64,000 nucleotides of DNA from an uncultured delta proteobacterium (GCA_963724765.1 CAVRVY010000001.1:480001-544000); one strand, 5' to 3'. Shown: positions 9,725 to 42,338, counted from the first letter of the stretch. Numbers and translations are program-made. The notes: a model not told the origin generated them from the letters alone.

Positions 9725-9734
9725 GCCTCTCCCC

Positions 9735-24215: not shown

Positions 24216-24346
24216 TGTCCGAAATTTCAAACGGCAGCGTTGAAATTCTTGGACAGACTGGAATGTCACTGAATCCCGAAGAGGCAGAAATTGGCCGAAG
24301 TCCGGTGCCATCTAATCTATCAGCGGTCGATGGCAAAGCGTTTGCT
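24216..24346 (+). promoter_or_regulatory. Enhancer (two YGT-N12-ACR sites, 22-bp period, 24216-24255) plus sigma54 promoter TGGCAAAGCGTTTGCT (24331-24346), copy A
   Basis: GG-N10-GC spacing; element repeated at 26146 and, inverted, at 32927-33055. Confidence 0.8.
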
Positions 24347-24426
24347 ATGTCCGGTCGTCTTCAAAAATAAGTGCGCCATCGGCATCAATCCCGAATCAAA
24401 CGAAGGCCGCCAAGAAACCCTCGCGC

Positions 24427-25832
24427 ATGAGTAAAAGTGCTCTCACCCTTGGTCACCTTAACATCCGGCTCGTATTGGGGCTGGCGCTGTTCCTACGCGC
24501 ACTACTCCCGATATCAGGCTATCTGTACACACGTGACGCTACCATCTTCTACACGCCTGACACCGCCACTTATATTGTTCCGGCCCGCGAGTTAGTCACC
24601 CATCACCGCTTTTTCTCCGATGGGGCACCGGAAGTCATTCGAACCCCGGGCTATCCTTTGCTGCTTACGGCTGGCCTGCTGTTGGATCGCTTGGAACTCG
24701 TTACAGTCACGCTCCAACTTTTACTTAGTTGCTTCACGTATTCATGGTATATCGGACAGCCTGTCTGTTCTTCGAGCGCGATGACATAGCTATCATTGCC
24801 GCGGTGCTGTATGCGATAGATCCGCTTTCCATATTGTTCGCAAGCCTACTCGCCCCTGAAACTCTTTTTACCGCAATAGTCATGGTCGCAGTCTACTACC
24901 TTGTGAAGTACCTGAGGCGGCAATCACCGGGGGACCTGCTTGCTTCGGCCGGCGCTCTGGCCGCCTCAGTTTATGTCCGACCGATCGGCTACTTTTTGCC
25001 ACTGATAATCGCTGCCGGGCTGGCAACATGGACGTTGATCACTTATGGGCAAAACAAGCTCGGCCTCCTAGCTCCCAGCTGTGCTTTCGTTATTGTTTCC
25101 CTGGGGCTCACCGGTCTCTGGCAGGTTCGGAACAAGGTCGAGTCAGGGTACTCTGGCTTCTCAGCCATCGCTAGCGACAATATGTACTTCATCGGAGCCG
25201 CATCGGTCCTGGCCGCCCAACAGCATGTGCCGTATTACGGGATGAGGGACCGGCTAGGCTATCAGAACCCGCGCGTTTATTTCCATGACCATCCTGAACA
25301 GAAGACCTGGTCTGTAGCGCGGAGAAGCAATTATATGAATCGGGCCGCCGAGCACATTTTGCTGGACAGCTCCTTGACTTATACTTGGATTTATCTCGAT
25401 GGCCTCCTTCGAGGCACCTTCGATCCCGCTTCTACCGAATTTCTCAGATTCTTCGACCTCTATCCTAAGGAGGGCGGTCTTCTGACAGTTGAGGTCGACA
25501 AAGGCATAGTCCCAACTATCGAAGCGCTTTACGCTAATCCACTCCTGTTTTGGAGCACGGCCATAATGCTCCCGCTGCTGCTGATATACCTGTCGTGTGC
25601 GTGCGTAACACTCTGCAGCCGGCTGATACTGAACCCTGCCATTCTCGCCGTTTCTTTAATAATGGGCTACTATATGGCTATTGCGGGTGGCCCCGGCGAC
25701 TGGGCCCGATTCCGTCATCCGGCAATGCCTATTATCTGCATGCTGGCTGGGTATGGTTCACGTGTGGCGCGGAGCCGCTGGGAACCCCCGTTTGCCGCCT
25801 GGTGTCGCATGTGTTTTCAGCAATCTCATTAG
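24427..25832 (+). pseudogene. ArnT/PMT-like (GT-C) membrane glycosyltransferase split by a 1-nt deletion near 24738
   Basis: PD...Y, RTPGYPL, E.LF, YVRP, RFR.P; adding one G restores CFTVFMVYRT. Confidence 0.75.
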
Positions 25833-26145
25833 ACAAGCTTTCAGAGTATCGAATGCGTCGTGGAGGTGGGGCCGTTCGCCGAGCGGCCGCATCGCCAGAG
25901 CGACGGGACGTGGCTCTGACTGTCCGACCATATCGGGGTGATCGCCACGCTCAGGCTGTAGGCGGCGAGCGATGCAGTAAACAGGTCGACGGCAGTCAGA
26001 GAACTGCCGGTCGTTGCGCTGGATCGGCACGACGTATGGGGCTGGTCGCAAATCCACCATTTCGCCTACAGTGCCCGTCGAGGCAGCCGGGTTTGACATC
26101 ACGAACTGATGAGCAACCGATCGTACTTCAACGGTTATCTATGGC

Positions 26146-26271
26146 TGTCCGAAATTTCGAACGGCAGCGTTGAAATTCTCGGACAGACTGGAATGTCGGT
26201 GAATCTCAAGAGCGGAAAAATGGCCGAAGTGCCAGTGCCATTCACCGACGGTCGATGGCAGGGCGTTTGCT
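26146..26271 (+). promoter_or_regulatory. Enhancer (26146-26185) plus sigma54 promoter TGGCAGGGCGTTTGCT (26256-26271), copy B
   Basis: Direct repeat of copy A; GG-N10-GC. Confidence 0.8.
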
Positions 26272-26657
26272 TTTCACGGTCTCCGATCGTCTTCGAATAT
26301 GTGCGCCACATGACCGTGAATCCCGAGGTCGTTTCCTCTCCTTTGGGCATTTTCTTTCGACGATCTTACGAGTTGCTGGCCGTACTGTGCAGTCAGCCGT
26401 TCTGGCGCTATAGTCTGCCGGGACCGGCGACAGTGATTGAAAAGCTGAAACAGAAGATGGCTGGTTTTGAGACTTATCGGCGGGTAAGGGCCACATTAAG
26501 GGTTTGGGCGTGCGGCTGCCATCCGCCGTCGCCGAAGCATCGTTTCCGGTCGCCAAGTGGATAGTTGTGAGCATCGGCGTGTCGGACGCGTCACGATGAC
26601 ACTTGTTCGCGGATGGAAAGCGCGAATGCTGGTGGATTTAGTTCAAGGAGAGATCGA

Positions 26658-26673
26658 AGGCACGGGGCTTGCT
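26658..26673 (+). promoter_or_regulatory. Candidate sigma54 promoter AGGCACGGGGCTTGCT
   Basis: GGCACG-N4-TTGC match about 120 nt upstream of the PPOX gene. Confidence 0.5.
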
Positions 26674-26794
26674 CAGTATCGATTAGGCTCGGCACGACCG
26701 TTCACGAAACATTTCCAGGACCAATATGCTCGAACCTCACACCAACGTAGAGCGCACAGTACTTCGGAAATAACCCAACAGCGGCGAGGGAATA

Positions 26795-27358
26795 ATGAGG
26801 TTGCTCGTCCGAAAGTCGGCGGTCTCACTGCTAATGGTCTTAGCATTGGAAGTTCTTCTGATGAGCAGTGGAGCGCTTAGTCAAGCTTTCCATCGCGATG
26901 CTGACGCGCTTTCACAAGCGAGTGTCATCTATATTGCTACGGTCCGCAAAGACGGCAATCAGAGTAAGGCGGCTCCGGTCTGGTTCACAACGGCATCAGA
27001 CGGCTTAGTCCTAATTCAAACGGCTACAACTACATGGAAGGCAAAACGGATTCGGCGTGGCAGCCCTGTTATTGTGTGGATAGGTAAGCGGGGCGGTCCC
27101 GCATTTATCGGCAAGGCAAAGATCACGAGCGATCCAGCGGTCAATAATCAGATAGTCAATGACTACCCGCAAAAATACCTTCTTGCGCGGCTTGGCTTCC
27201 ACAAGCCGACCCAGGAAATGTTCACCGAGGGACGCATTGTCGCGATAAAGATTACTCCGGTACGTGACTTGCCGGAAGGGTTTGCTTCTGCACCGGGGAC
27301 TCCGGCTCCTGAAGTAAGCGACGCGCGTGGTAATCGGACGAGCTCTTCCGCACGCTGA
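26795..27358 (+). CDS. Pyridoxamine 5'-phosphate oxidase-like (split-barrel) protein with signal peptide
   Basis: IAT.RKDG...APVWF, KAKRIRR...V; N-terminal hydrophobic segment. Confidence 0.75.
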   Translation: MRLLVRKSAVSLLMVLALEVLLMSSGALSQAFHRDADALSQASVIYIATVRKDGNQSKAAPVWFTTASDGLVLIQTATTTWKAKRIRRGSPVIVWIGKRGGPAFIGKAKITSDPAVNNQIVNDYPQKYLLARLGFHKPTQEMFTEGRIVAIKITPVRDLPEGFASAPGTPAPEVSDARGNRTSSSAR

Positions 27359-27398
27359 TGATGCGGTTCAGGCCTTCTCGCCGAGCAAGCTCTGCCGC

Positions 27399-27947
27399 GT
27401 GTCGGCGCAGGCTGCGAACCTGCTGAGCGCGCTTCGTTTCGTGCTTGCGGCGGTCTGGATAGCCGCATTCATGGCCGGCGACCGCGGCTTGGGAATTCTG
27501 GGTCCGATAGCTATAGTTGGCGCGCTCTCGGATTTCCTCGATGGCCGCGTCGCGCGACGGATGCGTCGCGCCGACGGATTTGGGCGGTGGCTCGACGGGT
27601 TCGCCGATATCACCTTTGTGGCTACAGCGCTCTCATGTGAGGCGGCAGCAGGGGCAATTCCGTTCTATGTACCAACCCTCGTCGTCGTTTCATTTGGTCA
27701 ATACACGATTGACTCCATAATGATTAGTCGCTCTTTGACGCCCGTCAAGAGCCGATTCGGACATTGGGGCGGCGTGCTCAACTTCAGCCTCGTAATTGTC
27801 CTGGCATTTGCGCCACCCCCGCAGTGGCCCGGTGTTCTGATCCGCGAAGCCTCTCCGCTTCTTGCCATCTTCTATCTGGCAGCAATCGCCGAGCGGGTAC
27901 TGAGTTACTGGCGGTTGTCTCCGATTAGCCCTGTTCAGGCCGGGTAA
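27399..27947 (+). CDS. CDP-alcohol phosphatidyltransferase
   Basis: AN.LS.LR and D.LDG.VAR.......G..LD..AD signature; start codon uncertain. Confidence 0.85.
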   Translation: MSAQAANLLSALRFVLAAVWIAAFMAGDRGLGILGPIAIVGALSDFLDGRVARRMRRADGFGRWLDGFADITFVATALSCEAAAGAIPFYVPTLVVVSFGQYTIDSIMISRSLTPVKSRFGHWGGVLNFSLVIVLAFAPPPQWPGVLIREASPLLAIFYLAAIAERVLSYWRLSPISPVQAG

Positions 27948-28056
27948 TGCAGCCTGCCTCAGGAGCAAAGGGTGTACTCCATTGATATGTTGATGTTCCG
28001 TGGAACACTCACTCGAATCCTTTGACTGCAGAAGAGCGCTCGGTCATGAAGATGCA

Positions 28057-29034
28057 CTAGGCGGATGGCATTTGCTGAATTGCGGTCAATTCGCGGGCCG
28101 CGCGTGCTAAGAAAAGCAGTCCAATCAATCCGTTACAGAACATAAAAGTGAAGTGTGCAGCGAGACTGTACGCCAGAATCCTCGCCTCCGGGGCACTCCC
28201 CGAAAAGAAGAGAATCCAGGCCGCCTGACTGGTACCCAGATGTGCCGCTGCGATGGGCAGCGCCGCTGCAAGAAATACGAGCGGGAGAAACAGCACCAAC
28301 TTCATGAGTGGAATGGTGATTCCGTATAATGCAAGAGCGAAGTGCTGTGTTAAAAGCGACGCAAGGAAACCGGGAGCCTTTATGCCAAGGACAACGGCGT
28401 AGTCCCATGGTCGGGCGGCTAGAAACGTGCCGGCCACAGCACCAAGCTTGCTGTCCTCAATCCATGCTCGCACCCGATTGTTCCGCCTTGCAAGCGCAAA
28501 AACACCGATGATGCTAGCGAGCGTCAACCAGGCGACAACATACGCAATTCGCAGGAAATGGACTATTTCCAGTTGTCGCGGTGAGTTAGGATGATAGAAC
28601 ACTACGCCTAGCGTCGAGAACAGGAAAAGCTGATAGATCTCCATCAGCCCGATAAGCAGAATTGAGCTGAGTATTTGGAGGAATGGAACTCCGGCCTTGC
28701 GATGCAAATACCAGGTAACGCCGCCCTGCCCGAGGTTGGTGTTGATCATTGAGAGCAGGTACATGCTGGCGCGGATCGGCATGATATCGCGAAGTCGCAT
28801 CGGGCTATTGAAGCGGCGAACGACCCACGTCAGGCAGAGAGAATCGATAATCCAATAGAAGGCACAAAACGGGAGAAAGACAACGAAGAACTTCAGCACC
28901 GGCGCCTGGGCGAGCGCCGCCGCGACATCGGCGACGGGTATGAGCCAGAAGATGAATGCAAAAATAAGTAGCGTCCCGATGTATGGAAGAGCCCTTCTCC
29001 CCAGACGTGACACAGGTGACGCAACAAACGCCAT
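28057..29034 (-). CDS. Lysylphosphatidylglycerol-synthase-TM (flippase-like, UPF0104) membrane protein
   Basis: About 8 TM helices; N.N.GQGG and LP....LG motifs. Confidence 0.65.
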   Translation of the reverse strand: MAFVASPVSRLGRRALPYIGTLLIFAFIFWLIPVADVAAALAQAPVLKFFVVFLPFCAFYWIIDSLCLTWVVRRFNSPMRLRDIMPIRASMYLLSMINTNLGQGGVTWYLHRKAGVPFLQILSSILLIGLMEIYQLFLFSTLGVVFYHPNSPRQLEIVHFLRIAYVVAWLTLASIIGVFALARRNNRVRAWIEDSKLGAVAGTFLAARPWDYAVVLGIKAPGFLASLLTQHFALALYGITIPLMKLVLFLPLVFLAAALPIAAAHLGTSQAAWILFFSGSAPEARILAYSLAAHFTFMFCNGLIGLLFLARAARELTAIQQMPSA

Positions 29035-29349: not shown

Positions 29350-30108
29350 TCATCGCGGCGGTACAATAATGGTCACCTTCCGCGCCTGTGGACCCATTGC
29401 CCATGTGATGTAGCCGCTCGTTTCGACCTTGACTTGAACCAAGTCGGAAACCTTGAACAGGTGCGGCGGAATTGTCCGGAGCACTGGCAGCATATAAGCA
29501 AAAATTGAGAACATCCTCGGTGAAGCCCCCGTCTCGGGCTCTCTGGTTGAGTTTATGATCTGAGTTGGTGACAGCACGTTCGGACTTTCGACACCCCATT
29601 CCACGTAAGGGACGAGAAAATCACATGCCGCTGTTACCTGATCGCCCAATAGATGACCGTGTACCTGGATCGTTATCTCGTGGAGGCTCCCTTGCACCTC
29701 CATCAGACCCGTTATCTGTCCGTAAAAATTATTTTGCGAGTCGCGAATACCCTGGATCTTCTGCGGGATGAAAGTGATTTCGGGATAGCGGGCGACATCG
29801 AGCACGCCATTCCTTATGATGGCATCGCGCAACTGTTCTTTGCTGTCCTCGCTGGCGGCGTCTATTTCGATTTTACCGGTGGCATTGCCAGTTTCGGGAT
29901 CGACGCGAATGTTTCCGCTTTTGAGTGCGAACCGGCCGTTGGTCGTGTGGAGGTTTCCTAGTAGCGTGAAATCGATATTGGTGTGCGCAGGATCGAGTTG
30001 AACAATGTCGGTCTGCGGCAGGGCATTCGATTGCGCATGGGCAATCGGAATCGGCTGTGCATTCAGGGCTGCGACTGCAGCCGCAAAAACATAGGATCTC
30101 AACATCAT
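29350..30108 (-). CDS. YceI family lipid/polyisoprenoid-binding periplasmic protein
   Basis: Signal peptide, LDPAHT.I.F, G.F, RD, LD..RYP.I.F motifs; C-terminal extension. Confidence 0.8.
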   Translation of the reverse strand: MMLRSYVFAAAVAALNAQPIPIAHAQSNALPQTDIVQLDPAHTNIDFTLLGNLHTTNGRFALKSGNIRVDPETGNATGKIEIDAASEDSKEQLRDAIIRNGVLDVARYPEITFIPQKIQGIRDSQNNFYGQITGLMEVQGSLHEITIQVHGHLLGDQVTAACDFLVPYVEWGVESPNVLSPTQIINSTREPETGASPRMFSIFAYMLPVLRTIPPHLFKVSDLVQVKVETSGYITWAMGPQARKVTIIVPPR

Positions 30109-30240
30109 AGCGCTTCGCCTATAACTCCGGGAGTTCAACTGTTGAACCTGAGCAGTCTCCCAAAACCAACCCGCGATCTCGTTAATGTCGATCGAAATTG
30201 CAGAAATGACAGAAATGATCCTCCTGACCATCTACAACTC

Positions 30241-31371
30241 CTATCTCTGAGCGGGACTCACGCAAACGAAATGGCGAGCAAATCTGGCGATAACACCAGG
30301 CGGAATGGCGCTTAGCGATAATGCCGCCGTATGAACGCCGAGCATGAACCCGAACATCTGCGATTGCGAATTCAGTGCATGTAACACCCGACGCCGTAGC
30401 CCCGCCCGAGCACCGACGCAGAGCATTAGGTTGGCCATGCGTCTAGGCACACGAGTGATATGCCGGTGAACAATCTGATATTTCGCAAGATCCTGCTGCT
30501 CGACGGCCTCGGCGAGCGTGAGGGCCTGGCGGAACCCAAGTGAAAGACCTTCGCCTGTAAGAGCGTCGACCGACCCGGAGGCGTCCCCGACTAGCGCGAC
30601 TCGGTCGCGGACGACAGAACGTATCTCGCTGGACCCGGAAACTGCTCCCCGGACGGAACTGGTCGCACGCGCACCCCTTAGGCGTCGACAAAGCTCCGGA
30701 AAGAGCTCGATCAGTTCCGCCATAGGTCCGCAATGGGCGCTTGCGAAAACTGAAATGCACACTTCGTTCCAGGCTATGGGTGTCACAACCGCCTGCCCCA
30801 GGTTATGCCAATGCACTTCGACGAAATCGGTCCACGGCCTCGCCCGGAAATGCTGCCGAAGTCCGATTCTGCGGCGAGCGTTCGAAGGTAGTCGAAATCC
30901 TGCCCATCGCCTGACGCGCGATTCGCGGCCATCTGCGCCCACGATCCATCGACATGGCACATTTCGTCCGGCTATCCGGACCCCGGCGCTGCTCACGCCA
31001 GTAACGGGCTCACCCCAGCGCGTGACGACGCCAGCTTCCTCAGCTCGAAGGGCCAACATTTGATGAAGGACGGGGCGTCGAATACCGAGACCATGTCCCA
31101 CAACTGCAGGAAAATAAGCTTCGGCGGATAATCCCGCATCTATAAAGCGGATGCCATAAAAGGGAAGAGCGTTACTATTACTAGTGTCTACTTGTACACC
31201 TAGGACACGAAGGGCCGAGACTCCTTCAGGCATAACGCCTTCGCCACAGGGCTTGTCGATCGGCGGCTGAGCCTTATCTGCGACGAGTACTTCGAGGCCA
31301 CGCTGGCGAGCTGCGATCGCAGCGGCAAGTCCGACGGGGCCGCCGCCGACAACGACAAGGTCCGGTGCCAT
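30241..31371 (-). CDS. FAD-dependent oxidoreductase/monooxygenase of a type III PKS operon
   Basis: VVGGGPVG, DKPCGEG, GADG..S.VR and LVGDASG.VDALTGEG motifs. Confidence 0.88.
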   Translation of the reverse strand: MAPDLVVVGGGPVGLAAAIAARQRGLEVLVADKAQPPIDKPCGEGVMPEGVSALRVLGVQVDTSNSNALPFYGIRFIDAGLSAEAYFPAVVGHGLGIRRPVLHQMLALRAEEAGVVTRWGEPVTGVSSAGVRIAGRNVPCRWIVGADGRESRVRRWAGFRLPSNARRRIGLRQHFRARPWTDFVEVHWHNLGQAVVTPIAWNEVCISVFASAHCGPMAELIELFPELCRRLRGARATSSVRGAVSGSSEIRSVVRDRVALVGDASGSVDALTGEGLSLGFRQALTLAEAVEQQDLAKYQIVHRHITRVPRRMANLMLCVGARAGLRRRVLHALNSQSQMFGFMLGVHTAALSLSAIPPGVIARFARHFVCVSPAQR

Positions 31372-31375
31372 CTAC

Positions 31376-32425
31376 TTACCAGCGAATCAGAATCAATTCG
31401 GAGCAGAACCCCGGGCCCATCGCCGCAAGCAGACCGAGCGTACCCGGCTTAGGCCGACAGGACGTCATCGTCTCTTCCAGGACGAGCAACACGGACGCCG
31501 ACGATATGTTGCCGTGTCGGCGCAGACAGTCCCACGACAGCTTTAAGTCATGGTCGGAAAGACCCAGCGCGCGTTCGACCGCCTCCAAAATCTTTGGCCC
31601 GCCCGTATGAATAACCCAGTTGCCGATATCGCTCCGGCTCAGGGCAAAGTCAGCCAGAAAGCGATCGAGGTCGGCACCTAAGTGCTGCTGAATAAGCTCC
31701 GGTAGTTTCGGAGACAAAACGATCCGGAAACCCTTTTCAGAGATGTCCCAGCCCATGATCTCCTCGGAATTGGGGTAGAAGACGGAGCGAGTTCCGAGAA
31801 TTGCGGGTCCGACGGACGGCCTCTCCGCGCCAACGACGATTACCGCTGCAGCACCATCGCCAAAGAGACCTGTCGAGATCAGATTTGGAGTCGACACGTC
31901 GTCGCGCTGCAGCGTCAGCGAACAGACCTCGACCGCCAGCAGCGCGGCGGCTTGTGTGGGATAAGCCCTCACGTAGTCAGCCGCGCGGGTTAGGCCAGTC
32001 GCTCCACCGACACAGCCCAGGCCAAAGATTGGCGTCCGCTTGATATCGGGCCGCAGTGTCATTCGGTTGATCAGGCGCGCGTCAAGTGACGGGCTCGCCA
32101 CTCCAGTGATCGAAACGACGAAGAGGGCATCGAGGTCGCGGCGCGTCACACCGGCGCGCTCCAATGCGCCATCTACCGCCTTTTCTCCTAGTTGCTCGGC
32201 GATCTCGATCCAGGCGCAGTTGGACTGCCCCCACGTTTCGAAGCGCTTGTAGTCTGCGAGTGAGAAGGCAAAATTGCGATAGTCGACACCGGTCCGCGAA
32301 TGCAGGCGTGTGAGAAGTTCGGGGCACTGGAGCTTCTCACCCCAATGAGCCCGCAGAGCGTCGGTGATTAAGTATTGATGGTAGCGATGAGATGGAAACG
32401 CGCCTGCTGCTCCAGCGATCTTCAT
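31376..32425 (-). CDS. Type III polyketide synthase (alkylresorcinol/alkylpyrone type)
   Basis: Catalytic triad GLGCVGG, HTGG, GNISS; LFGDGAAA; MGPGFCSE. Confidence 0.93.
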   Translation of the reverse strand: MKIAGAAGAFPSHRYHQYLITDALRAHWGEKLQCPELLTRLHSRTGVDYRNFAFSLADYKRFETWGQSNCAWIEIAEQLGEKAVDGALERAGVTRRDLDALFVVSITGVASPSLDARLINRMTLRPDIKRTPIFGLGCVGGATGLTRAADYVRAYPTQAAALLAVEVCSLTLQRDDVSTPNLISTGLFGDGAAAVIVVGAERPSVGPAILGTRSVFYPNSEEIMGWDISEKGFRIVLSPKLPELIQQHLGADLDRFLADFALSRSDIGNWVIHTGGPKILEAVERALGLSDHDLKLSWDCLRRHGNISSASVLLVLEETMTSCRPKPGTLGLLAAMGPGFCSELILIRW

Positions 32426-32624: not shown

Positions 32625-32920
32625 CCATATCCAGGGACCACGCAGTCGATAGGCATCGCGGGATGCCGGAACCGGCCGAGTCAGTGGGCCCGCCTGGAAT
32701 CGTCAAAAATGCCTCGAACAAGGCCCTCGAAATTAAGTCGACCGCCTGGAGAGCGCGATGCACGCAGATCCCAGATACATGAGCTGCAGTGCAAACAGCA
32801 CGACGGTGCTCCATGCGAGCAGCGGATTAAGGAGCAGCGTTTCCAGAGTTTTGATGATGCCTTTATCGACCTCTACCTCGAGAGGACCGCCGTCTTTAGG
32901 GTAGAGGTCGAAGAAGCTTA
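32625..32920 (-). pseudogene. Degraded C-terminal fragment paralogous to the GT-C gene at 24427-25832
   Basis: FFDLYPKDGGPLEVEVDKGI..., IPGGP and RFRHPAMPI match the C-terminus of that gene. Confidence 0.85.
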
Positions 32921-32926
32921 GGAGAG

Positions 32927-33055
32927 AGCAAACGTCTTGCCATCGACCGCCGCCGGAACTAAATGGTAGAAAACTTGGGCATCTTCCCATCTCCGGGTTC
33001 AATAGAATTGCAGCCTGTCCAAGAATTTGGACGCTGCTGTCCGAAGTTTGCGACA
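32927..33055 (-). promoter_or_regulatory. Enhancer (33016-33055) plus sigma54 promoter TGGCAAGACGTTTGCT (32927-32942), copy C, pointing toward the PKS operon
   Basis: Inverted third copy with the same 22-bp site period and GG-N10-GC. Confidence 0.8.
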
Positions 33056-33462
33056 ATCAGATCAACTTGATAAGCCTGAAGTTGCTCAAGGCTTTATTTT
33101 TTGCAACAGAAAGCACCCCGCCCACGCTCTTTGCCGCGGCATGCGATCTGCTTATGTGCCAAAAGCAAGAGCGGCGTGGATAAACGAATCTGATTGGACT
33201 TTCGTTGGTCGGTTCCGGTGCGCAAGCAACAGCTTTTATTTCGCGACCCTAAATGCTCGAGCTGCTGGCGGCTGCGAGCAAGCGCCGCTCTTTAAGATTT
33301 TGGCTCGGTACTTGGCGACAGCACGGCACAGGCGGCAACCTGCAGCATGCGAAGCATCGAGATGCGCTGCGTGGTTGGATGGTTCACAGCGTTGTTCATG
33401 TTTTTGATGCTCGGCGTCCGCTGGCCCAGCTCCGGTTCTGAGGTAGGGATAAACTATAGCTT

Positions 33463-34356
33463 TTGAGTATAGCTACGGTGCATCCCCTGACGAAAAGAAG
33501 TTCAATTGGCTTGCTCGCTCCCGTCTTTCTGCTGCTCTTCGCTTCGGGTCTGGCGAATGCCCAGCCGCCGAGCGTCTCGGCAGTTGGCAATGAACTGACA
33601 TCCGATTTCAAATACCTCGTCAACAATACCCTGTTGGACGCAGAGGATGCCTTTACCTCGCCTTTATACGTGGCGGCGCCCGACAGTGCGCTGCGCTCAC
33701 CCAAGTTTTACCTGGTGCTGGCGGGCGCGGGCGCAATCTTCGGCGGCTCGTTCGCGCTGGACCAGACGATGCGCAGTCACCTGGGCGGCATGAGCAGTAG
33801 CGACGCGGACCTTTTGCAGAACGTCAGCTACGGCTCGGTCAGCGCTGCGACGGCGCTCCTGTACGGCTACGGGCTTTGGAACGATGATCATCGAGCAAGA
33901 GAATACGCGCTTACCGCTGGCGAGGGGGCGGGAATAGCAACGCTCGTTGACATTGGGATTAAGGCGGGGTTTGGCCGCCTGCGGCCAAGCCAAACGGGCA
34001 GCCACACCGCGTTTTTCCATGGTGGGCAGTCGTTTGTCTCGGGCGACGTAACGCCGATGTTCGCCCTCGCCGCCGGAGTGAGCGAATACTACGACAATCG
34101 CTGGTCCGTGGCCGTACCGATCTACTCGCTCGCGCTGCTCGACGGTTTCGGTCGTATGGGGAACAACGCCCATTGGTTCTCGGACGTGGTCGGCGCCGCG
34201 CTGCTCGGCGTCGGCACCACGGAGCTCCTTCTTTGGCTCCACAAGCGCCACGAGGCGGAACCGAGCCGGTGGCGGATCTTCTCGATGAGCGCGCCTTCGG
34301 GGCCGAGGGCTAGCACCCAACCGTCAGTTGGGATGGGCGTAGCTTATAACTGGTAG
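33463..34356 (+). CDS. PAP2 family membrane phosphatase-like protein
   Basis: K......RP, SFVSGD (PSGH variant), R.....HW.SDV; N-terminal signal; start uncertain. Confidence 0.8.
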   Translation: MSIATVHPLTKRSSIGLLAPVFLLLFASGLANAQPPSVSAVGNELTSDFKYLVNNTLLDAEDAFTSPLYVAAPDSALRSPKFYLVLAGAGAIFGGSFALDQTMRSHLGGMSSSDADLLQNVSYGSVSAATALLYGYGLWNDDHRAREYALTAGEGAGIATLVDIGIKAGFGRLRPSQTGSHTAFFHGGQSFVSGDVTPMFALAAGVSEYYDNRWSVAVPIYSLALLDGFGRMGNNAHWFSDVVGAALLGVGTTELLLWLHKRHEAEPSRWRIFSMSAPSGPRASTQPSVGMGVAYNW

Positions 34357-34546: not shown

Positions 34547-35926
34547 ATGAAGGCCGGCTTAAAGGAGCGGAGTGCGCTATTCTGCATGGTGGCCGCGATC
34601 GCTGGACATAAACGCGCTATGGGCCAATGGCCTTTCAGCACCCTTGCGCTGACAATCGGCCATGGCGATTCCGATTTCGTGGCGAGCGACTTTGAGTCTT
34701 TTCGCCGCCAGGAGTTCCTATTTGCCCTCCTGAATCTGCTCCTGATCGGTGCGCTGTTGGCACTACAAGCCTTCTCCCGATTCGTTCGCGGCAGACCTGC
34801 AGCTTCCGTCGTCTGGGTTCTGGCAGTTGGCTTGGTGATGCAAGCGGTTCACCTTACATGGTTAAACTGGAGAACTGCACCACTGTCGCTCCCGAAGCGG
34901 AGGGTCTTCACGTTCTGGTCGCTCGGGTTCAACTCAGCGCTCGCCTTTGTTCTTACCTTCATCACCATAAGAGGCGATACCGCTTACTACGCTCTGATGC
35001 TGCTGCCGGTGCTCGAAGCCGCATTTAGGCTTGGCCTTGGCGCCACAATCGCGGTGGCAGTGCTGGCGGACTTCGTCTGTTTCCTCGGAGCTTATGGGAT
35101 GAAGTTCGGCGAGTACATCGAAGCTGGCGCAATGTCCGTGATTTTTACAGTAATGGGAGTTCTCGTATGGCTTTTGGTCAACAATCTCCGTCAGCGCGAG
35201 GCGCGATTCGTGCGCAACCTCGAGGAACTTGAGCGGACCCGCCTGCAACTGCTTTCCGAAGAAAAGCTCGCGGCGGTGGGTCGACTGTCGAGGGCAATCG
35301 CACACGAAATTCGAAATCCCGTCGCAATGATTGCTAGTTCGCTCGCGACTGCCGCACGCGCAGGCCAGGACGAGGCCGAACGGAAGGAAATGTTCGCAAT
35401 CGCGGCCAAGGAAGCCACCCGTCTTGAGCGGCTCACTAGCGATTTTCTCGTTTACGCTCGTCCACGGGCGCCGCAAATCGGCCATGCGAACCTCGCCGAT
35501 ATCCTCAACTACGTCGCAACCCTCTCCCGTGCTCACGCGGCAAATAATGGCGTGGCAATTGATGTTCTTGCCGACCGTGACCTGGAAGGGGACTTCGACG
35601 CCGGGCAGGTTCAGCAGGCGCTTTTGAATCTGGTTCTGAACGCAATCGACGCATGCCGCCGTGGCGACTCGGTCGGACTCAAGGCTGAAAAGAACGGAGG
35701 CGCCGCGATACGGATCGATGTGATCGATCCAGCCGGTCCGATCCCAGGTGACACGGTCGGCCGCATTTTTGAACCGCTATTTACTACCAAGCAGGGAGGA
35801 AACGGGCTCGGCCTCGCCATCGCACGCAATATCGTCCGTGCGCATGGCGGCGACATAGTGCTCAGAATCAACGAGCCGAGCCTCGTATGCTTTTCGATCG
35901 AAATCCCCGGGCATTCTCCCAACTAA
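34547..35926 (+). CDS. Membrane-embedded sensor histidine kinase
   Basis: About 5-6 TM helices, EKLAAVG, AHEIRNP, NLVLNA, IFEP.FTTK, GLGL; start uncertain. Confidence 0.92.
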   Translation: MKAGLKERSALFCMVAAIAGHKRAMGQWPFSTLALTIGHGDSDFVASDFESFRRQEFLFALLNLLLIGALLALQAFSRFVRGRPAASVVWVLAVGLVMQAVHLTWLNWRTAPLSLPKRRVFTFWSLGFNSALAFVLTFITIRGDTAYYALMLLPVLEAAFRLGLGATIAVAVLADFVCFLGAYGMKFGEYIEAGAMSVIFTVMGVLVWLLVNNLRQREARFVRNLEELERTRLQLLSEEKLAAVGRLSRAIAHEIRNPVAMIASSLATAARAGQDEAERKEMFAIAAKEATRLERLTSDFLVYARPRAPQIGHANLADILNYVATLSRAHAANNGVAIDVLADRDLEGDFDAGQVQQALLNLVLNAIDACRRGDSVGLKAEKNGGAAIRIDVIDPAGPIPGDTVGRIFEPLFTTKQGGNGLGLAIARNIVRAHGGDIVLRINEPSLVCFSIEIPGHSPN

Positions 35927-35947
35927 ATCGCACTGTGGGAATACACG

Positions 35948-37354
35948 ATGGGCAAGATATTGATCGTAGATGACGAGCCGCACCTGCGGCGGATCCTAAC
36001 CTCCAATCTGAAGCATGAGGGCCATGAGATAGTCGAGGCAGCCGGCGTCAGCGACGCGCGGCGTGCCCTAACCGAGTTTCGTTTTGATGCAGTCATAACG
36101 GACCAGAAAATGGGCGATGGCGAAGGGTTGGATGTTCTAGCCTCCGCGCACGAGACGGATTCTGCTTTATCAGTCGTCTTCCTGACAGCGTTTGCTACCA
36201 TAGAGCTCGCGGTCGAAAGCATGCGCCGTGGCTCCTTTGATTTCATCACCAAGCCATTCGCGCCTGAAGTCCTGCTTGCGTCCACTAGCCGTGCGGTGGA
36301 GCACACCAGACTCTTACGCGAGAATGGTAGGCTCCGTGACGAGGTATTACGCCTCGAAGGTTCCTCGGAGATTACGGGACGGAGCTCTGCGATTCGCGAG
36401 CTTCGCGAGAAGATCACACGCGTTGCACCAACGAACGTGACGGTTTTCATCACTGGAGAAACAGGTACCGGCAAGGAACTTGTAGCCCGCGCGGTTCACT
36501 GCAGTAGCGGTCGCGCTTCAAAACCTCTCGTTGCCGTCAACTGTGCAGCTTTTACCGAGACACTTCTGGAAAGCGAATTGTTCGGCCACGAGCGCGGGGC
36601 ATTCACTGGTGCCGATCGCGCGCGCGAGGGCCTGTTCGAGGCCGCGCACGAAGGCACGCTCTTCCTGGACGAGGCCGGAGAGTTGTCCATGCCCGCGCAG
36701 GCAAAGCTGCTGCGCGTGCTCACGGACGGGCTGGTGACGCGAATCGGCTCGACCAAGCCGCGCCAGGTCGATGTCCGGCTTATTGTCGCGACACATCGCG
36801 ATTTGAAGCAACGGGTGCAGGATGGTCTCTTTCGGGACGACCTGTATTACCGTCTCGCCGTCGTGCCGCTGGAGGTTCCCCCTCTTCGCGAGCGCAGAGA
36901 AGACATACCAGCACTATGCGAACTTTTTCTAATGCACGCGGCACGTGATCTAAAGGTGGCACCGCGGAGGATCGGCGCAGACGCGATGCGCACCCTCCTG
37001 AGCTACGACTTCCCAGGTAATATTCGCGAACTGAGGAATCTCATTGAACGAGCTTGTATTCTCTCGATTGGGGCTGAGATCACATCGGAGAATTTTCCCA
37101 TGGCAGCCCAGATCCGCACTGCCGGCGTTCCCGTCGACCGCGCGAGCCCGATCACTCCTAATGAAGTCGCCGAAATGATGTCCGAGACCCTGGACCTGCG
37201 CGAGTTCTTGGCCTCGCTCGAAAAGGCGGTCATTCAACGAGCGCTCAGAGCCACTAGTGGAGCGCAGGCTGAGGCTGCACGGAGGCTTGGCCTTTCGCGA
37301 AGTGACGTTTCCTACAAGCTGGGAAAGCACAACATCAAAACGGCCGCGAGCTGA
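35948..37354 (+). CDS. NtrC-family sigma54-dependent response regulator
   Basis: REC (ILIVDDE), GETGTGKE, ESELFGHERGAFTGA, LFLDE, FR.DLYYRL, PGNIREL and Fis-type HTH. Confidence 0.95.
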   Translation: MGKILIVDDEPHLRRILTSNLKHEGHEIVEAAGVSDARRALTEFRFDAVITDQKMGDGEGLDVLASAHETDSALSVVFLTAFATIELAVESMRRGSFDFITKPFAPEVLLASTSRAVEHTRLLRENGRLRDEVLRLEGSSEITGRSSAIRELREKITRVAPTNVTVFITGETGTGKELVARAVHCSSGRASKPLVAVNCAAFTETLLESELFGHERGAFTGADRAREGLFEAAHEGTLFLDEAGELSMPAQAKLLRVLTDGLVTRIGSTKPRQVDVRLIVATHRDLKQRVQDGLFRDDLYYRLAVVPLEVPPLRERREDIPALCELFLMHAARDLKVAPRRIGADAMRTLLSYDFPGNIRELRNLIERACILSIGAEITSENFPMAAQIRTAGVPVDRASPITPNEVAEMMSETLDLREFLASLEKAVIQRALRATSGAQAEAARRLGLSRSDVSYKLGKHNIKTAAS

Positions 37355-37395
37355 GTCTGGAACCGACGATAGCGTGCACGATGGATCTTGCTCTT

Positions 37396-37583: not shown

Positions 37584-37649
37584 GATGAAAAATACCGTCG
37601 CAGACCCAACGACAGCTGTTGCCGCTGCCGGGAAGGAAGACCACCCGTT

Positions 37650-38606
37650 ATGTCGTTTCCCGGTCTGATTGAAGCTGCTCACCTTCGGAAAAGCTACGGC
37701 GCACGTTTGGCCATAGATGACCTGACCTTCAGCGTGAAGTCCGGCGAAGTTGTCGGTTTGCTTGGTCCCAATGGCGCCGGTAAAACCACTACCCTGTCGA
37801 TTCTCGCGACGCTGGCCGCACCCGATGCCGGCGAAGTTCGGATTGCCGGGATCGATTCGCGTGTGGCTCCTGATAGTCTGCGGCGAAAGCTCGGCTTTGT
37901 TCCGCAGTCTATAGCTCTCTACCCGCCACTAAGCGCATTTCGAAACTTGGAAGTCTTCGCTCGCGTCCATGGGCTGACTCGACGGCTGGCAGAAGCCCGC
38001 AGCATCGAAGCCCTCGACTCCGTCGGACTTCGCGATCGCGCAGATGATCCCGTCTGGACGCTCTCGGGCGGAATGAAGCGGCGGCTCAATCTCGCCTGCG
38101 GGATGGTTCATCGACCAGAGGTGCTGCTCCTCGACGAACCGACCGTCGGCGTCGATCCGCAGTCACGCGAACGCATCTTGACGACGATTCGTGCTTTGAC
38201 TGATTCCGGCGTCGCGGTGCTCTACAGCACGCATTACATGGAGGAGGTCGAACGCATGTGCGATCGCGCTTTCCTGATTGACCGGGGCAAGCTGATGGCC
38301 CAAGGCACGGTCGCTCAGCTGATCGAGCTGGGCGGTCGCCATCCTCGCATGAAGATTACGTTCGAAACCCCGCCACGACCTGGATGGTACGACGGTCTAT
38401 CGGGGGTAAGAGAGCTCGCGCCGGCGACTGCCGAAACCACGGTCGCGCTCGAACTCACAAACCTCAGGCAGGTCAGCGAATTGCTGGAGCGGGCACACAA
38501 CGTTGGTGGCCAACCGCTGGAATTCGCGGTGCATAGTCCCAACTTGTCCGACGCTTTTATCGCGTTAACCGGTCACGCGCTGCGCGACGCGACTCCTGAG
38601 ATTTAA
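37650..38606 (+). CDS. ABC exporter ATP-binding protein
   Basis: GPNGAGKTT, LSGGMKRR, LLDEPT.GVDP, THYM.E. Confidence 0.93.
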   Translation: MSFPGLIEAAHLRKSYGARLAIDDLTFSVKSGEVVGLLGPNGAGKTTTLSILATLAAPDAGEVRIAGIDSRVAPDSLRRKLGFVPQSIALYPPLSAFRNLEVFARVHGLTRRLAEARSIEALDSVGLRDRADDPVWTLSGGMKRRLNLACGMVHRPEVLLLDEPTVGVDPQSRERILTTIRALTDSGVAVLYSTHYMEEVERMCDRAFLIDRGKLMAQGTVAQLIELGGRHPRMKITFETPPRPGWYDGLSGVRELAPATAETTVALELTNLRQVSELLERAHNVGGQPLEFAVHSPNLSDAFIALTGHALRDATPEI

Positions 38607-38619
38607 CGAGGATTCGCTA

Positions 38620-40335
38620 ATGCTGCGCGCGGCATGGATAGTATTTCAGAACGAATTTCGCCTTCTTGAGCAAGATCGCGCGGCGTTGTTCATGCTGGCT
38701 CTGGCTCCCCTGGTAATCATCACGGTAGCGGGACTCTCGCTTGGCAATATATACGGCGCCCAGCCCGGCTCGGAGCCGTATTCCATTATAGTCGTGGACG
38801 ACGATCACGGACGGCTGGCGCGTGCGCTCGTTGAAGCGTTCAGTCGTGACCATTCAGTGTCGGTCGTGTCGGTGGCGAATCTAAATGAGGCGCGCGCAAT
38901 CGTCAGCGGGCGGGCCCGCGCGCCACTTTGTATCGTGATCCCATCAGGAACAACAGACGCCTTTGAAGCCGGTCGCGACGTCCACCTGATGCTATACATC
39001 GACCCAGTGAAACGGCTGGAAGCCGGGGCCATCGAGCTTGATCTAGACCGCCTGTGCCGCGAGGTCACGGCTCGCGCTCACGACCTTGCGCGGAAGAAAA
39101 TGGCGGAACAGGCATCCCATCTCCGTGATCAGCTCGCGCAGGCCACCGATCAGATGAAAGCCAGCGCGGCTCAGCTGGATCGGCTTCGGCGGCAATTCGA
39201 ACGCGCCCGCGCCACTGCTCAATCGGAAATGATCGTGCAGACCCGCCAGGCAATCGAGCGAATCAGGGCCGAAACCATTTTGCAGGTTGATCGCTCCCTC
39301 GCGCAGACCAGGATTGCCGTCGAGCGCGACCTTGCCGCCCGCCACGACGCGCTGATTGCCGTGAGTCGCTACCTCGAACAACTCCAGGCAAGCCGGCACG
39401 ACTTCGAGACGTGGCTCGCGGAGCTCAAGTTCGCCGCTGGCTCTCATGCAAGCCAAATTCCCCCTCCACCGCAGTGGCCAGCCCAGCCCGATAGAGCGCA
39501 GTTGGCCGAACTCTCAAAGCCGCTCGATTTTGCCGCGCCGCGCGTCGATGCGGCGGCGTCCGTTGCGCTCCCGAATATAGCGATCAGGTTGCCGCGTCTA
39601 CCGGAGCTTCCTGATCTTCGTTCGATTCCTGATCTTGGCTATGCAGTTTCGCAGACGGCATCGCCCCTGCCGGGGATCCTCGGATGGCACGAACGTTCGA
39701 TCACCGGTGGCGATGCCGAGGTGAATGCGTTCGACCAGTATGTGCCGGGGTTCGGAATCACGTTCCTCTTGGTCGATATGCTCTGGGGCGTCGGCGTGGG
39801 TCTGATCGATGAACGCGACTGGGGCACCCTCGCGCGCCTGCGCGTCAGCGGCGCGCCGGCCTCGGGAATGATGCTCGGAAAACTGATGTCGCGTTTTCTA
39901 ATCGGCCTCGGTCAGATGGTCCTCCTGTTCGGCGCCGGCTGGGCTCTGTTCGGAATATCCCTCGGACGTAATTCGTGGGCTTTGCTGTTCCCGGCGGCGG
40001 CAATTTCATTTGCGGCTGCCGCATTCAGTCTCGTCATCGCCTGCGTCGCCAACACTCGCGATGCCGTGCTGCCGATCGGCGCGATGGCTGCGCTTGCGAT
40101 GTCAGCGATTGGCGGGTGCTGGTGGCCGCTCGACTTCGAGCCTTATTGGATGCGCGCGCTCGCGCTTGGGATGCCCACAACGTGGACGATGGAGGGGTTC
40201 AACAACTTGATGATTCGCGGGCTCGATCCGTTAAGTACCGCGTGCCCTGCGGCGATTACGTTTGCAATCGGTACGGTCTTTCTCGCTATGGGAATTCTTA
40301 GCTCCTCGCGAATATACGATCACGCGGGTCAATGA
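38620..40335 (+). CDS. ABC-2 type permease with a long coiled-coil/Pro-rich extracytoplasmic insertion
   Basis: N-terminal TM, VVDDD, YVPG, ER..GTL.RL, GG.WWP, PT.W. Confidence 0.85.
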   Translation: MLRAAWIVFQNEFRLLEQDRAALFMLALAPLVIITVAGLSLGNIYGAQPGSEPYSIIVVDDDHGRLARALVEAFSRDHSVSVVSVANLNEARAIVSGRARAPLCIVIPSGTTDAFEAGRDVHLMLYIDPVKRLEAGAIELDLDRLCREVTARAHDLARKKMAEQASHLRDQLAQATDQMKASAAQLDRLRRQFERARATAQSEMIVQTRQAIERIRAETILQVDRSLAQTRIAVERDLAARHDALIAVSRYLEQLQASRHDFETWLAELKFAAGSHASQIPPPPQWPAQPDRAQLAELSKPLDFAAPRVDAAASVALPNIAIRLPRLPELPDLRSIPDLGYAVSQTASPLPGILGWHERSITGGDAEVNAFDQYVPGFGITFLLVDMLWGVGVGLIDERDWGTLARLRVSGAPASGMMLGKLMSRFLIGLGQMVLLFGAGWALFGISLGRNSWALLFPAAAISFAAAAFSLVIACVANTRDAVLPIGAMAALAMSAIGGCWWPLDFEPYWMRALALGMPTTWTMEGFNNLMIRGLDPLSTACPAAITFAIGTVFLAMGILSSSRIYDHAGQ

Positions 40336-40817
40336 GCCGGGAGAGCTATTTGCTGCGAGGTCCACTGAAGCACGACATTCTTTTGTGCGTCACTCAGCTT
40401 GGCCGACGGATGAAAGAAGTCGTAATCTGCGGGTGGCATCGATCCGCTGTCCACGACCGCTTCAATCTCCGAGGCCATCGCGTTGCGCTGCTTTACATCC
40501 AGAGTCGCCCAGTCCGAGAAGTTCAGGACCTCTCGTCCTTTGTGCGCGCCGAACAGATACGACGGCGCAAGCTTCGCACTCCAGGAGCCGCTGCCGCGGT
40601 CGGAATGGCAATCGAAGCAAGAATTCGCGAGAGTTTGGTAGACCTGCGGGTCTGCTGCGAGACTATCGGTCGGAGCAGATCCTCGCTGCATCGCTGTCGA
40701 GTTGCTGCTACTCGAACATCCCGCGAGCAGTATCGCGATCCAAAAAGAAGCGCCGATACAGACTGCAAACAGACGGGGGCGCCAAATTCCAGCGGTATCG
40801 GAAATCAATCGATGCAT
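40329..40817 (-). CDS. Monoheme cytochrome c (haem-binding domain) lipoprotein
   Basis: Lipobox LAGC, CFDCH, LNFS.W and MPP..Y..FHP.AKL; ends overlapping the permease stop. Confidence 0.85.
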   Translation of the reverse strand: MHRLISDTAGIWRPRLFAVCIGASFWIAILLAGCSSSSNSTAMQRGSAPTDSLAADPQVYQTLANSCFDCHSDRGSGSWSAKLAPSYLFGAHKGREVLNFSDWATLDVKQRNAMASEIEAVVDSGSMPPADYDFFHPSAKLSDAQKNVVLQWTSQQIALPAH

Positions 40818-40848
40818 AGCAATCTTTCCCTAAATAAGACGTGCAGCA

Positions 40849-40864
40849 CGCAAGATGGATGCCA
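40849..40864 (-). promoter_or_regulatory. Candidate sigma54 promoter TGGCATCCATCTTGCG for the cytochrome c gene
   Basis: GG-N10-GC about 30 nt upstream of the ATG. Confidence 0.6.
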
Positions 40865-40964
40865 TGCTGCGCGTCCCAAATCCTTCAGAGCCCGGCAGTT
40901 CCTGCTATCCAGACGGCTCTCGACCAAACGAAAATTCGTGCCACCGCGACGAGGAGGATCTAGA

Positions 40965-42338
40965 ATGGCAAGTTCTCCGCTTGCCCAATACCCCAGCGAC
41001 GGAATGAGACTTTACGAAAAGTGCGTAAATCCGCAATGGGTCCGATTGCTCGATGTGTTGCAAATGAACGTGCGTTATAGCCGCTGCATCGGAACCGAGC
41101 TTCACACCGAAGACGGCCGCCAAATTCTCGACTTTAATTCAGGCTATTGCGTTCACAACGCTGGCCACAATCATCCGCGGATCAAAGCGGCGATCATCGC
41201 GGAACTCGAGCGCGATGGCGCCGCGATGCTCCAGACCGGTGTGCCGGAACTTGCAGGAGTTCTCGGCGCGCAGTTGTGCGAGCGCGCCGGCGGCAAGCTC
41301 ACCAAGGCGTTCTTCGCGAGTTCCGGCAGCGAGGGAGTCGAGGCGGCGATCAAATTCTCCCGAGCCCATACCGGTCGCGTCGGGATGCTTTCGGCCAAGG
41401 GCAGCTTCCATGGCCTCACATGCGGAGCACTCTCGCTCATGTCCGATGCGTTCTGGAAGGATGGGTTCGGTCCCATGCTTCCGGACGTCGAGATGGTCAG
41501 CTTTGACGCACCCGACGAACTTGCGACTAAGCTTGCGTCGAAACGCTTTGCTGCTTTCATCGTGGAGCCGGTACAGGTTGAGGCTGGAGTGCGCATACCC
41601 GACAGCGAATATCTGCAACAGGCGCAGGCGCTATGTCGTCGCTATGGCACTTTGTTCGTGCTGGACGAAGTGCAGACCGGACTCCACCGCACAGGGCCAT
41701 TCCTTGCGGCGCATCATTTCGCGCTCGACCCTGACATGATCATCCTGGCGAAGGCGCTCAGCGGAGGCCTGATACCGGTCGGAGCGGTGCTCATGACCGA
41801 CGCGGTGTACAACTCGACCTACAGCTCTTTCAAGCGCTCAATCGTTCACACTTCGACTTACAGCGAGAATGCGCTGGCGATGCGCGCGGGTCTCGCGACC
41901 CTCGAAGTGCTGGAATCGGAGAGGTTAGGCGAGCGCGCCACGAGATTGGGCCAGCAATTGCGATACATGCTGGCCGCGCGAATCGCCGACTACGAAATGA
42001 TTGGCGAGATTCGCGGCATCGGAATGCTGACGGCGATCGAGTTCCGCGCGCCGAAGCGGTTGCGACTCAGAATCCCGTTCGAAGCTTTTGCCCGGATTCA
42101 TCCGGCGATGTTCGGTCAAGTACTCGTTATGCATCTGTTTCGCGACAAGGGATTTCTCACGCAGATCTGCGGCAACAATTTCATGGCGCTCAAGATCGCA
42201 CCCCCGCTGATCGTTACCGACAACCAGCTTGAACAGTTTGTGGGCGCCTTTTGCGACATTGTCGAGTTGATGCACTCGGGAGGTCGATTTTGGGGGGAAG
42301 CGCTTGGCATGGCTCGCCGCGTGATCGGCGCCATTTGA
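40965..42338 (+). CDS. Class III PLP aminotransferase (ornithine/HpnO-like)
   Basis: D..SG....GHNHP, SGSEGVE.A.K, FHG.T, DEVQTG, AKALSGG; GAGGAGG RBS. Confidence 0.9.
   Translation: MASSPLAQYPSDGMRLYEKCVNPQWVRLLDVLQMNVRYSRCIGTELHTEDGRQILDFNSGYCVHNAGHNHPRIKAAIIAELERDGAAMLQTGVPELAGVLGAQLCERAGGKLTKAFFASSGSEGVEAAIKFSRAHTGRVGMLSAKGSFHGLTCGALSLMSDAFWKDGFGPMLPDVEMVSFDAPDELATKLASKRFAAFIVEPVQVEAGVRIPDSEYLQQAQALCRRYGTLFVLDEVQTGLHRTGPFLAAHHFALDPDMIILAKALSGGLIPVGAVLMTDAVYNSTYSSFKRSIVHTSTYSENALAMRAGLATLEVLESERLGERATRLGQQLRYMLAARIADYEMIGEIRGIGMLTAIEFRAPKRLRLRIPFEAFARIHPAMFGQVLVMHLFRDKGFLTQICGNNFMALKIAPPLIVTDNQLEQFVGAFCDIVELMHSGGRFWGEALGMARRVIGAI

Follow-up and report, generated by a model that had tools for sequence, protein, structure and literature searches.

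The window analysed here, a 64,000-nucleotide stretch of DNA from an uncultured delta proteobacterium (C1:480001-544000 of a 5.4-Mb genome in four contigs, 62% G+C), contains three copies of a non-coding element in which two 18-bp dyads stand upstream of a sigma-54-type -24/-12 promoter, and within the same locus the genes of a sensor histidine kinase and of an NtrC-family bacterial enhancer-binding protein (bEBP). The dyad pairs are probably the enhancer (upstream activating sequence, UAS) of this activator (35948-37354), which would act from them on sigma-54-type promoters and so drive a set of envelope-lipid genes. Such an arrangement had been proposed in a sequence-only reading of the window, and the computational follow-up lends it support in silico: the sites are confined to the locus, co-occur with the activator in related genomes, are conserved, and recur before the same gene families.

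Three non-coding copies of about 130 bp had been described at 24216 (+), 26146 (+) and 33055 (-), each with two tandem quasi-palindromes 22 bp apart and with TGGCA-N6-TTGCT some 70-75 bp beyond them, and direct readout of the sequence bore out these particulars. The dyads begin at 24216/24238, 26146/26168 and 33038/33016, and the gap from the second dyad to the promoter motif is 75, 70 and 73 bp, respectively. A symmetrised dyad consensus, TGTCCGAAATTTCGGACA (i.e., TGTC-N10-GACA), was derived from 22 sites in seven genomes. The promoter elements at 24331 (+), 26256 (+) and 32942 (-), designated P1, P2 and P3, have the GG at -24, the GC at -12 and the canonical spacing of a sigma-54 promoter (TGGCAC-N5-TTGCW), and the dyads have the layout of a UAS, being arranged in tandem on one face of the DNA ~80-150 bp upstream of such a promoter. 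Their centres lie ~80-85 and ~102-107 bp from the T of the -24 element, with the nearest centre 84.5, 79.5 and 82.5 bp from the T of TGGCA at the three promoters. That the sites are better conserved than the spacers was also upheld, by column identity across the three copies: 31 of 40 columns are identical in the enhancer block and 13 of 16 in the -24/-12 block, versus 28 of 76 in the spacer and 8 of 36 in the upstream flank.

The elements are unique to this locus. When copy 2 was compared with the whole genome by BLAST, E values below 0.1 were obtained only at the three copies. Genome-wide scanning with a symmetric weight matrix for the dyad returned 23 sites of at least 15 bits, and the six of at least 20 bits were all in the locus; a site followed by a sigma-54-like match 40-220 bp downstream was found in nine cases, eight of them in the locus. 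The motif TGGCA-N6-TTGCW occurs 29 times on the two strands of the genome, three times in the locus. A single dyad-like site (17.1 bits) was seen elsewhere in the window, at 47113 and outside the locus, with no sigma-54-like match noted close by.

A genome scan for the motif had been suggested with the possibility of a miniature inverted-repeat transposable element (MITE) or a repetitive extragenic palindrome (REP) in mind, and it returned three copies only in 5.4 Mb, all within one 9-kb stretch and none dispersed, so that a small mobile or repetitive element was rejected. The other form of this alternative, an RNA hairpin acting as terminator or attenuator, draws on the 40-nt block, which in copies 1 and 2 folds into a single long hairpin (-24.7 and -24.2 kcal/mol; z of -6.3 and -5.0). 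However, copy 3 folds differently, no T-run follows the block in the three copies, covariation does not exceed that of shuffled alignments (score 0.105 versus a mean of 0.107 for the shuffles, of which 257 of 500 scored as high), and the dyad spacings of 31-43 bp found in relatives break a single hairpin. An intrinsic terminator or structured RNA was rejected as well, and it is thus exceedingly improbable that the elements are either mobile repeats or RNA hairpins.

The sequence-only reading was also correct in placing an NtrC-type activator with an intact GAFTGA, together with its kinase, inside the locus; the kinase gene is directly upstream of that of the activator. The activator has the features of an NtrC-family response-regulator bEBP, i.e., a receiver with the phospho-acceptor aspartate in ...VITDQKM... 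(Pfam Response_reg, 82.7 bits), an AAA+ domain with GAFTGA and the Walker A motif GETGTGKE (Sigma54_activat, 232 bits), and a C-terminal, Fis-type helix-turn-helix (HTH) (HTH_8, 41.7 bits). Each named protein tried as its equivalog was rejected on scores below the curated NCBIfam cut-offs, namely NtrC (417 versus 558.6 bits), AtoC (412 versus 714), ZraR (366 versus 760), GlrR (330 versus 763) and PrsR (PEP-CTERM; 351 versus 502.6), and by these scores the protein is an NtrC-family bEBP outside every named equivalog. Its HTH is near-invariant among orthologues (...GAQAEAARRLGLSRS.LSYKL.KH...) and has no similar paralogue in the genome, the best reaching 37.5% over 48 residues. The N-terminus of the kinase contains about six hydrophobic segments (residues 54-215), and this sensor part matched no Pfam family even up to an E value of 1. 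The genome has one rpoN gene (a single Sigma54_DBD match of 203.8 bits in an open frame of 527 amino acids).

Comparison with related genomes tied the sites to the activator. In a first set of 40 relatives, an activator orthologue was found in 13, at 69-94% identity as against at most 48% for the best paralogue, and all 13 belong to the same family. About 20 kb was fetched around each orthologue (loci L082-L094), and the weight matrix located dyad sites next to 12 of them. In 8 of the 13 loci the sites are paired, and all but one of the sites have a sigma-54-like match 60-140 bp away. A profile of the 50-bp site pair built from sequence only (R1; 11 sequences from seven genomes) was then used at E <=1e-3 on the 40 relatives plus the genome itself, and matched 9 of the 14 genomes with the orthologue versus none of the 27 without it. 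Among the five first-set relatives that have the orthologue and no R1 match, four have single or differently spaced sites beside it. In a sample of the whole family, with orthologues called at E <=1e-140, 50 of 151 genomes, from 13 of 30 genera, carry the activator. R1 matched 22 of 150 family genomes, and 19 of these carry the orthologue, usually no more than 10 kb away, so that the co-occurrence check proposed with the sequence-only reading came out in its favour. Twelve of the 19 had not been used in building R1, and for 10 of the 12 the match is on the contig of the orthologue and less than 10 kb from it.

A footprint alignment of 11 elements showed the dyads and the -24/-12 element to be conserved across genera, and the spacers of G020, G003, G016 and G024 could not be aligned with those of the window. 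The dyad starts are 21-23 bp apart in most pairs, with wider spacings of 31 bp (G004, G003, G016), 33 bp (G009) and 43 bp (the second G002 locus); the spacings correspond to two, three or four helical turns, and the dyads thus remain in phase. In the relatives and the window alike, most promoters have the T of TGGCA 78-85 bp from the nearest dyad centre. These comparisons bear on the possibility that the three elements represent a duplicated promoter cassette, alike by descent rather than kept by a shared regulator. Over 135-175 bp, a length that takes in the spacer and the leader's first 50 bp, copies 1 and 2 share 79-83% identity, and a fragment of the gene for the GT-C fold glycosyltransferase that follows P1 is found after P3, indicating that rearrangements did move pieces around. 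Duplication is nonetheless a very unlikely explanation for the likeness, since distant genera keep only the dyads and the -24/-12 element amid unalignable spacers, the same sites stand before unrelated genes (MlaA, Exo_endo_phos, aminotransferase), and the dyad spacing shifts in steps of about one helical turn.

The gene families behind the sites recur from genome to genome. Enhancer and promoter precede a GT-C transferase in G014, G004, G003, G016, G002, G024 and G083, and an aminotransferase, alone or with the type III polyketide synthase (PKS) cassette, in G004, G003, G016, G021, G023 and locus L049. In five loci of relatives, an enhancer and sigma-54 promoter stand immediately before the aminotransferase gene; in the window they do not. 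Other targets with sites before them are an ABC exporter (G023), YceI (G081), Exo_endo_phos (G024, G083), MlaC (G002) and MlaA (G083), and PAP2 is also among the recurrent families. In other genomes the sites precede these families even far from the regulator genes; in G002, 145 kb separates the regulator from those before the type III PKS gene. The PKS cassette itself has a much wider distribution than the regulator. Among 80 loci around PKS homologues in public metagenome-assembled genomes (MAGs; 1.53 Mb), L049 alone has an activator orthologue (69%) no more than 10 kb away, along with a site pair; the other 79 loci gave three single matrix matches of at least 17 bits, about the chance rate. 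With the cassette so widespread and the regulator at 1 of 80 loci, the lineage seems to have placed a pre-existing lipid cassette under a sigma-54 system of its own.

Enhancer 3 has a second candidate promoter, P3', which faces the regulator operon and was overlooked in the sequence-only reading. P3' (CGGCAT-N5-CTGCT) is a weaker sigma-54-like element, divergent from P3, and is 90.5 bp from the nearest dyad centre of the enhancer. Counterparts (C/GGGCAT-N5-YTGCK) facing the kinase operon were found in L082, L084, L085, L086, L087, L089 and L093; they sit behind the shared enhancer, 67-93 bp from the nearest dyad centre, and in five of the seven loci at 90-91 bp. In G020, the single promoter behind the site pair points at the kinase operon. 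Together, these arrangements suggest that enhancer 3 is bidirectional and that this is conserved in relatives, and with P3' facing the regulator operon, positive autoregulation is predicted.

Several observations weigh against the local activator as the occupant of the dyads, or against parts of the proposed regulon. The genome encodes many bEBPs (about 28 strong Sigma54_activat matches), and the sites are linked to the local one by proximity and co-occurrence. The -12 of P3' is CTGC, not TTGC; the first target, the GT-C gene, is frameshifted in this genome; and the proposed lipid or envelope role of the regulon, though a reasonable reading, comes from family names only. By weight matrix, no dyad site was found in L094, which is at the end of a 12-kb contig, and R1 failed to match 31 of the 50 family-sample genomes that bear the orthologue. 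Conversely, R1 matched G081, G083 and G137, which have no orthologue at the threshold used. Related genomes are, moreover, not independent, and seven genomes both built R1 and were scored with it. As for the three genomes matched by R1 without an orthologue, the G137 match is on a 3.6-kb contig, and in G081 (locus L097, G081:C144, positions 8974-9738) decayed kinase and activator fragments, in several frames and on both strands, adjoin an intact site pair and sigma-54 promoter before the YceI gene, which suggests a recent loss of the regulator.

The number of bEBPs also favours a different assignment, in which the dyads bind another regulator (another bEBP of the genome, or a repressor or activator that is not a bEBP) and the local two-component system controls something else. 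TGTC-N10-GACA is listed as the enterobacterial GlrR box too (PMC4987338, Table 1), so the architecture is not exclusive to one protein, and G083 has two site pairs with no called orthologue. That genome is only 75% complete, however, and the sites track the orthologue in the great majority of matched genomes (the 19 of 22 above), and stand directly before the kinase-activator operon in the window and in seven relatives' loci; no paralogue has a similar HTH. Binding by another regulator is therefore unlikely, and the local activator is the preferred occupant of the sites.

For the local activator acting from the dyads, we infer binding, activation, autoregulation, signal and products alike, as follows. 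Once phosphorylated by the membrane-embedded kinase (34547-35926), the regulator would bind as dimers at both dyads, on one DNA face and centred ~80 and ~105 bp upstream of -24, and form its ATPase ring there. At four promoters, P1, P2, P3 and the divergent P3', this ring would convert closed sigma-54 complexes to open ones. Transcription from P1 would provide the GT-C transferase; from P2, a PNPOx-like protein and a CDP-alcohol phosphatidyltransferase; from P3, the type III PKS, a flavin adenine dinucleotide (FAD) monooxygenase and a YceI protein; and from P3', a PAP2 phosphatase, the kinase and the activator itself, which would then stimulate its own expression. A change in envelope lipids is the likely output, comprising a long-chain phenolic or quinone-type polyketide lipid, lipid glycosylation, dephosphorylation and transport. 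A more elaborate picture may be put forward tentatively, and rather as a possibility than as an expectation: a hitherto undescribed sigma-54 envelope two-component system, in an uncultured family of soil bacteria, whose intramembrane-sensing kinase, with a six-helix domain of no known family, would amplify its own synthesis through the bidirectional enhancer. A whole programme of membrane hardening would then be turned on together: an aminated long-chain polyketide lipid of phenolic or quinone type would be made and exported, alongside GT-C glycosylation, the dephosphorylation of lipids and their Mla-type trafficking. The widespread aminotransferase-PKS-flavoprotein-YceI cassette would thereby have its first known regulator. 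The table gives the coordinates of the predicted elements and genes.

Table. Predicted regulatory elements and genes of the locus (window coordinates)
Feature	Coordinates	Strand	Remarks
Enhancer 1 (predicted), two 18-bp dyads	24216..24255		weight matrix 24.1 + 21.1 bits; R1 E 1.5e-13
P1, sigma-54-type -24/-12 element	24331..24346	+	TGGCAAAGCGTTTGCT
GT-C fold glycosyltransferase (PMT_2)	24427..25832	+	downstream of P1; 1-bp deletion; intact in closest relative G014
Enhancer 2 (predicted), two 18-bp dyads	26146..26185		R1 E 6.8e-15
P2, -24/-12 element	26256..26271	+	TGGCAGGGCGTTTGCT
PNPOx-like flavoprotein	26795..27358	+	downstream of P2
CDP-alcohol phosphatidyltransferase	27327..27947	+	downstream of P2
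LPG_synthase_TM-family membrane protein	28057..29034	-	on PKS-operon strand, after YceI gene; co-transcription with PKS operon only possible
YceI-domain protein	29350..30231	-	P3 unit
FAD monooxygenase	30241..31371	-	P3 unit
Type III PKS	31376..32425	-	P3 unit
P3, -24/-12 element	32927..32942	-	TGGCAAGACGTTTGCT; faces PKS operon
Enhancer 3 (predicted), two 18-bp dyads	33016..33055		common to divergent P3 and P3'; R1 E 3.2e-12
P3', weaker sigma-54-like element	33137..33152	+	CGGCATGCGATCTGCT; faces PAP2-kinase-activator
PAP2-family phosphatase	33463..34356	+	signal-peptide-like N-terminus
Sensor histidine kinase	34547..35926	+	
NtrC-family response-regulator bEBP	35948..37354	+	receiver, AAA+ with GAFTGA, HTH_8
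ABC-2 type exporter ATPase	37650..38606	+	
ABC-2 type exporter permease	38620..40335	+	
Haem_bd (CxxCH) lipoprotein-like gene	40329..40817	-	
Class-III aminotransferase (PigE-like)	40965..42338	+	GAGGAGG ribosome-binding site before start

The type III PKS has both Chal_sti_synt domains (N and C; Pfam 59.5 and 69.4 bits) and is closest, over its full length, to M. tuberculosis Pks11 (4JAO; E 5e-93, residues 3-349); by these matches it falls in the type III class for long-chain alkylpyrones and alkylresorcinols, which would be its predicted product. The PNPOx-like protein and the CDP-alcohol phosphatidyltransferase are found in the same order behind the P2 counterpart in G014. For the GT-C protein, no PDB relative was found by sequence and no NCBIfam family. 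The matrix scan showed no enhancer belonging to the ABC-2 exporter at the window locus; the relative G023 has one. The aminotransferase start had earlier been put at 40332 and is in fact at 40965, the long open reading frame (ORF) from 40332 being an artefact whose first 200 codons are antisense to the Haem_bd gene. The best NCBIfam model for this protein is the PigE aminotransferase, with a score under the cut-off of the model. Scanning of 23800-42600 for sigma-70 promoters and terminators gave 11 and 16 candidates, compared with 7.6 and 18.4 in shuffled sequence, and counts at this level were of no help in defining transcription units.

The GT-C transferase, named in the sequence-only reading as a driven target, does stand behind enhancer 1 and P1, but its gene is frameshifted here. 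Relative to the intact gene of G014, a 1-bp deletion at ~24738 (one G of a GG, within 24730-24745) yields ORFs 24427-24789 and 24729-25832, and a 212-nt contig of run X1, which may be from the sample of origin, spans the deletion with the same letters. The leader of the PKS operon, 490 nt from P3 to the PKS start, contains an in-frame GT-C-like remnant (32742..32921, -), which shares 70.6% identity with an internal stretch of the GT-C gene (25443-25622). The remnant lacks a start codon, and G014 has it too; just beyond its stop codon comes a small hairpin with a T-run (32724-32711).

Two further -24/-12 matches had been counted with the system, at 26658 and 40849; both exist, but neither has a dyad site within 220 bp and their membership in the regulon is unsupported. 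The first (26658..26673, +; AGGCAC-N5-TTGCT) is about 480 bp from enhancer 2, in a 395-bp stretch of the P2 leader (26367..26761, +) that G014 lacks and that occurs only once in the genome. A contig of run X1 differs slightly from the window at 26387-26422. The second reads from 40864 to 40849 and was excluded from the regulon: no dyad site accompanies it, its strand is the minus one, before the Haem_bd gene, and its TTGC is changed to TAGC in G014, the closest relative.

Further features were seen at the borders of the locus. An ORF of 294 amino acids (22986-23870), which recurs beside the system in relatives, matched no Pfam or NCBIfam family, and no sigma-54-like promoter was found toward it from enhancer 1. 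An inverted 87-bp repeat, 80% identical, links 23311-23397 with 37421-37500, the second copy being just after the activator gene and a fragment of the gene for this ORF; the relative G009 has the whole gene at that place, and the repeat thus looks like a rearrangement scar. A 357-bp direct repeat, 92.7% identical (20386-20742 and 22437-22793), lies in the arsenic-gene area adjoining the locus, with two partial copies on contig C3.

Several known systems resemble this one in part. At glnAp2, NtrBC uses tandem dyads ~100-140 bp ahead of the start at a sigma-54 promoter, where the phosphorylated response-regulator ATPase activates. The present locus likewise has tandem dyads upstream of sigma-54-type promoters, and NtrC was the best NCBIfam match of its activator; unlike NtrBC, it has a sub-threshold NtrC score, another site sequence, a membrane-bound kinase and unrelated targets. 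The lipid A regulons of PmrAB and PhoPQ, which include ArnT and PAP2-type phosphatases, are governed by OmpR-family regulators at sigma-70 promoters, and are similar by analogy, in that a two-component system would preside over an envelope GT-C transferase and a PAP2 phosphatase; since the GT-C protein matched nothing in PDB or NCBIfam by sequence, an ArnT-like substrate is no more than a possibility. Among operons for phenolic lipids and polyketide quinones are srsABC of Streptomyces griseus, ars of Azotobacter and the mycobacterial pkq/Pks10-11 genes. The Pks11-like PKS of the window similarly adjoins a flavin monooxygenase; unlike those operons, the cassette has YceI, together with a class-III aminotransferase in relatives, and no methyltransferase was seen beside it. 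A literature search, with most subscription journals outside its scope, found no paper connecting sigma-54 or a bEBP with a type III PKS or alkylresorcinol cluster, and no description of the present system.

Two enterobacterial systems are likewise similar. There are three GlrR sites at glmY, unlike the two sites per element here. GlrKR (QseEF) at glmY/glmZ shares the TGTC-N10-GACA dyad, as listed in PMC4987338, together with the sigma-54 promoter and an NtrC-family regulator, and differs in that the GlrR model scored well under its cut-off and that the predicted targets here encode lipid-related proteins, not small RNAs. PMC4987338 also describes ZraR of E. coli and Salmonella as controlling divergent sigma-54 promoters, of its own operon and of a target gene, on envelope stress, and this zraP-zraSR layout is matched here by a sensor kinase, an NtrC-family response-regulator bEBP and a bidirectional enhancer with predicted autoregulation. 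ZraR (366 bits), ZraS (145 bits) and PDB 1OJL (E 1.2e-81) are among the best named matches. The first two scores are far under the equivalog cut-offs of 760 and 479, so that the proteins are not orthologues; the sensor here, unlike that of ZraSR, has about six membrane helices and no Pfam family, and there are four predicted promoters at three enhancers, before lipid and envelope enzymes rather than a periplasmic chaperone.

In summary, it was observed directly that the sequence elements are present, unique to the locus and conserved, and that they co-occur with the regulator. This points to a real sigma-54 regulon with a readable enhancer that is comparatively well supported, the kind of switch being already well known. 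As the mechanism is conventional, its value would be that of a clean, comparatively supported regulon, with no new principle. Sigma-54 chiefly controls the cell exterior according to PMC3162934, and the regulon proposed here fits that published view. If the assignment is true, it would provide an experimental handle on an uncultured soil lineage, in the form of a defined DNA site, four promoters and a cognate activator, and would give a first regulatory context to a type III PKS phenolic-lipid cassette that is common in soil-bacterial MAGs and, at 79 of 80 loci, occurs there without the regulator.

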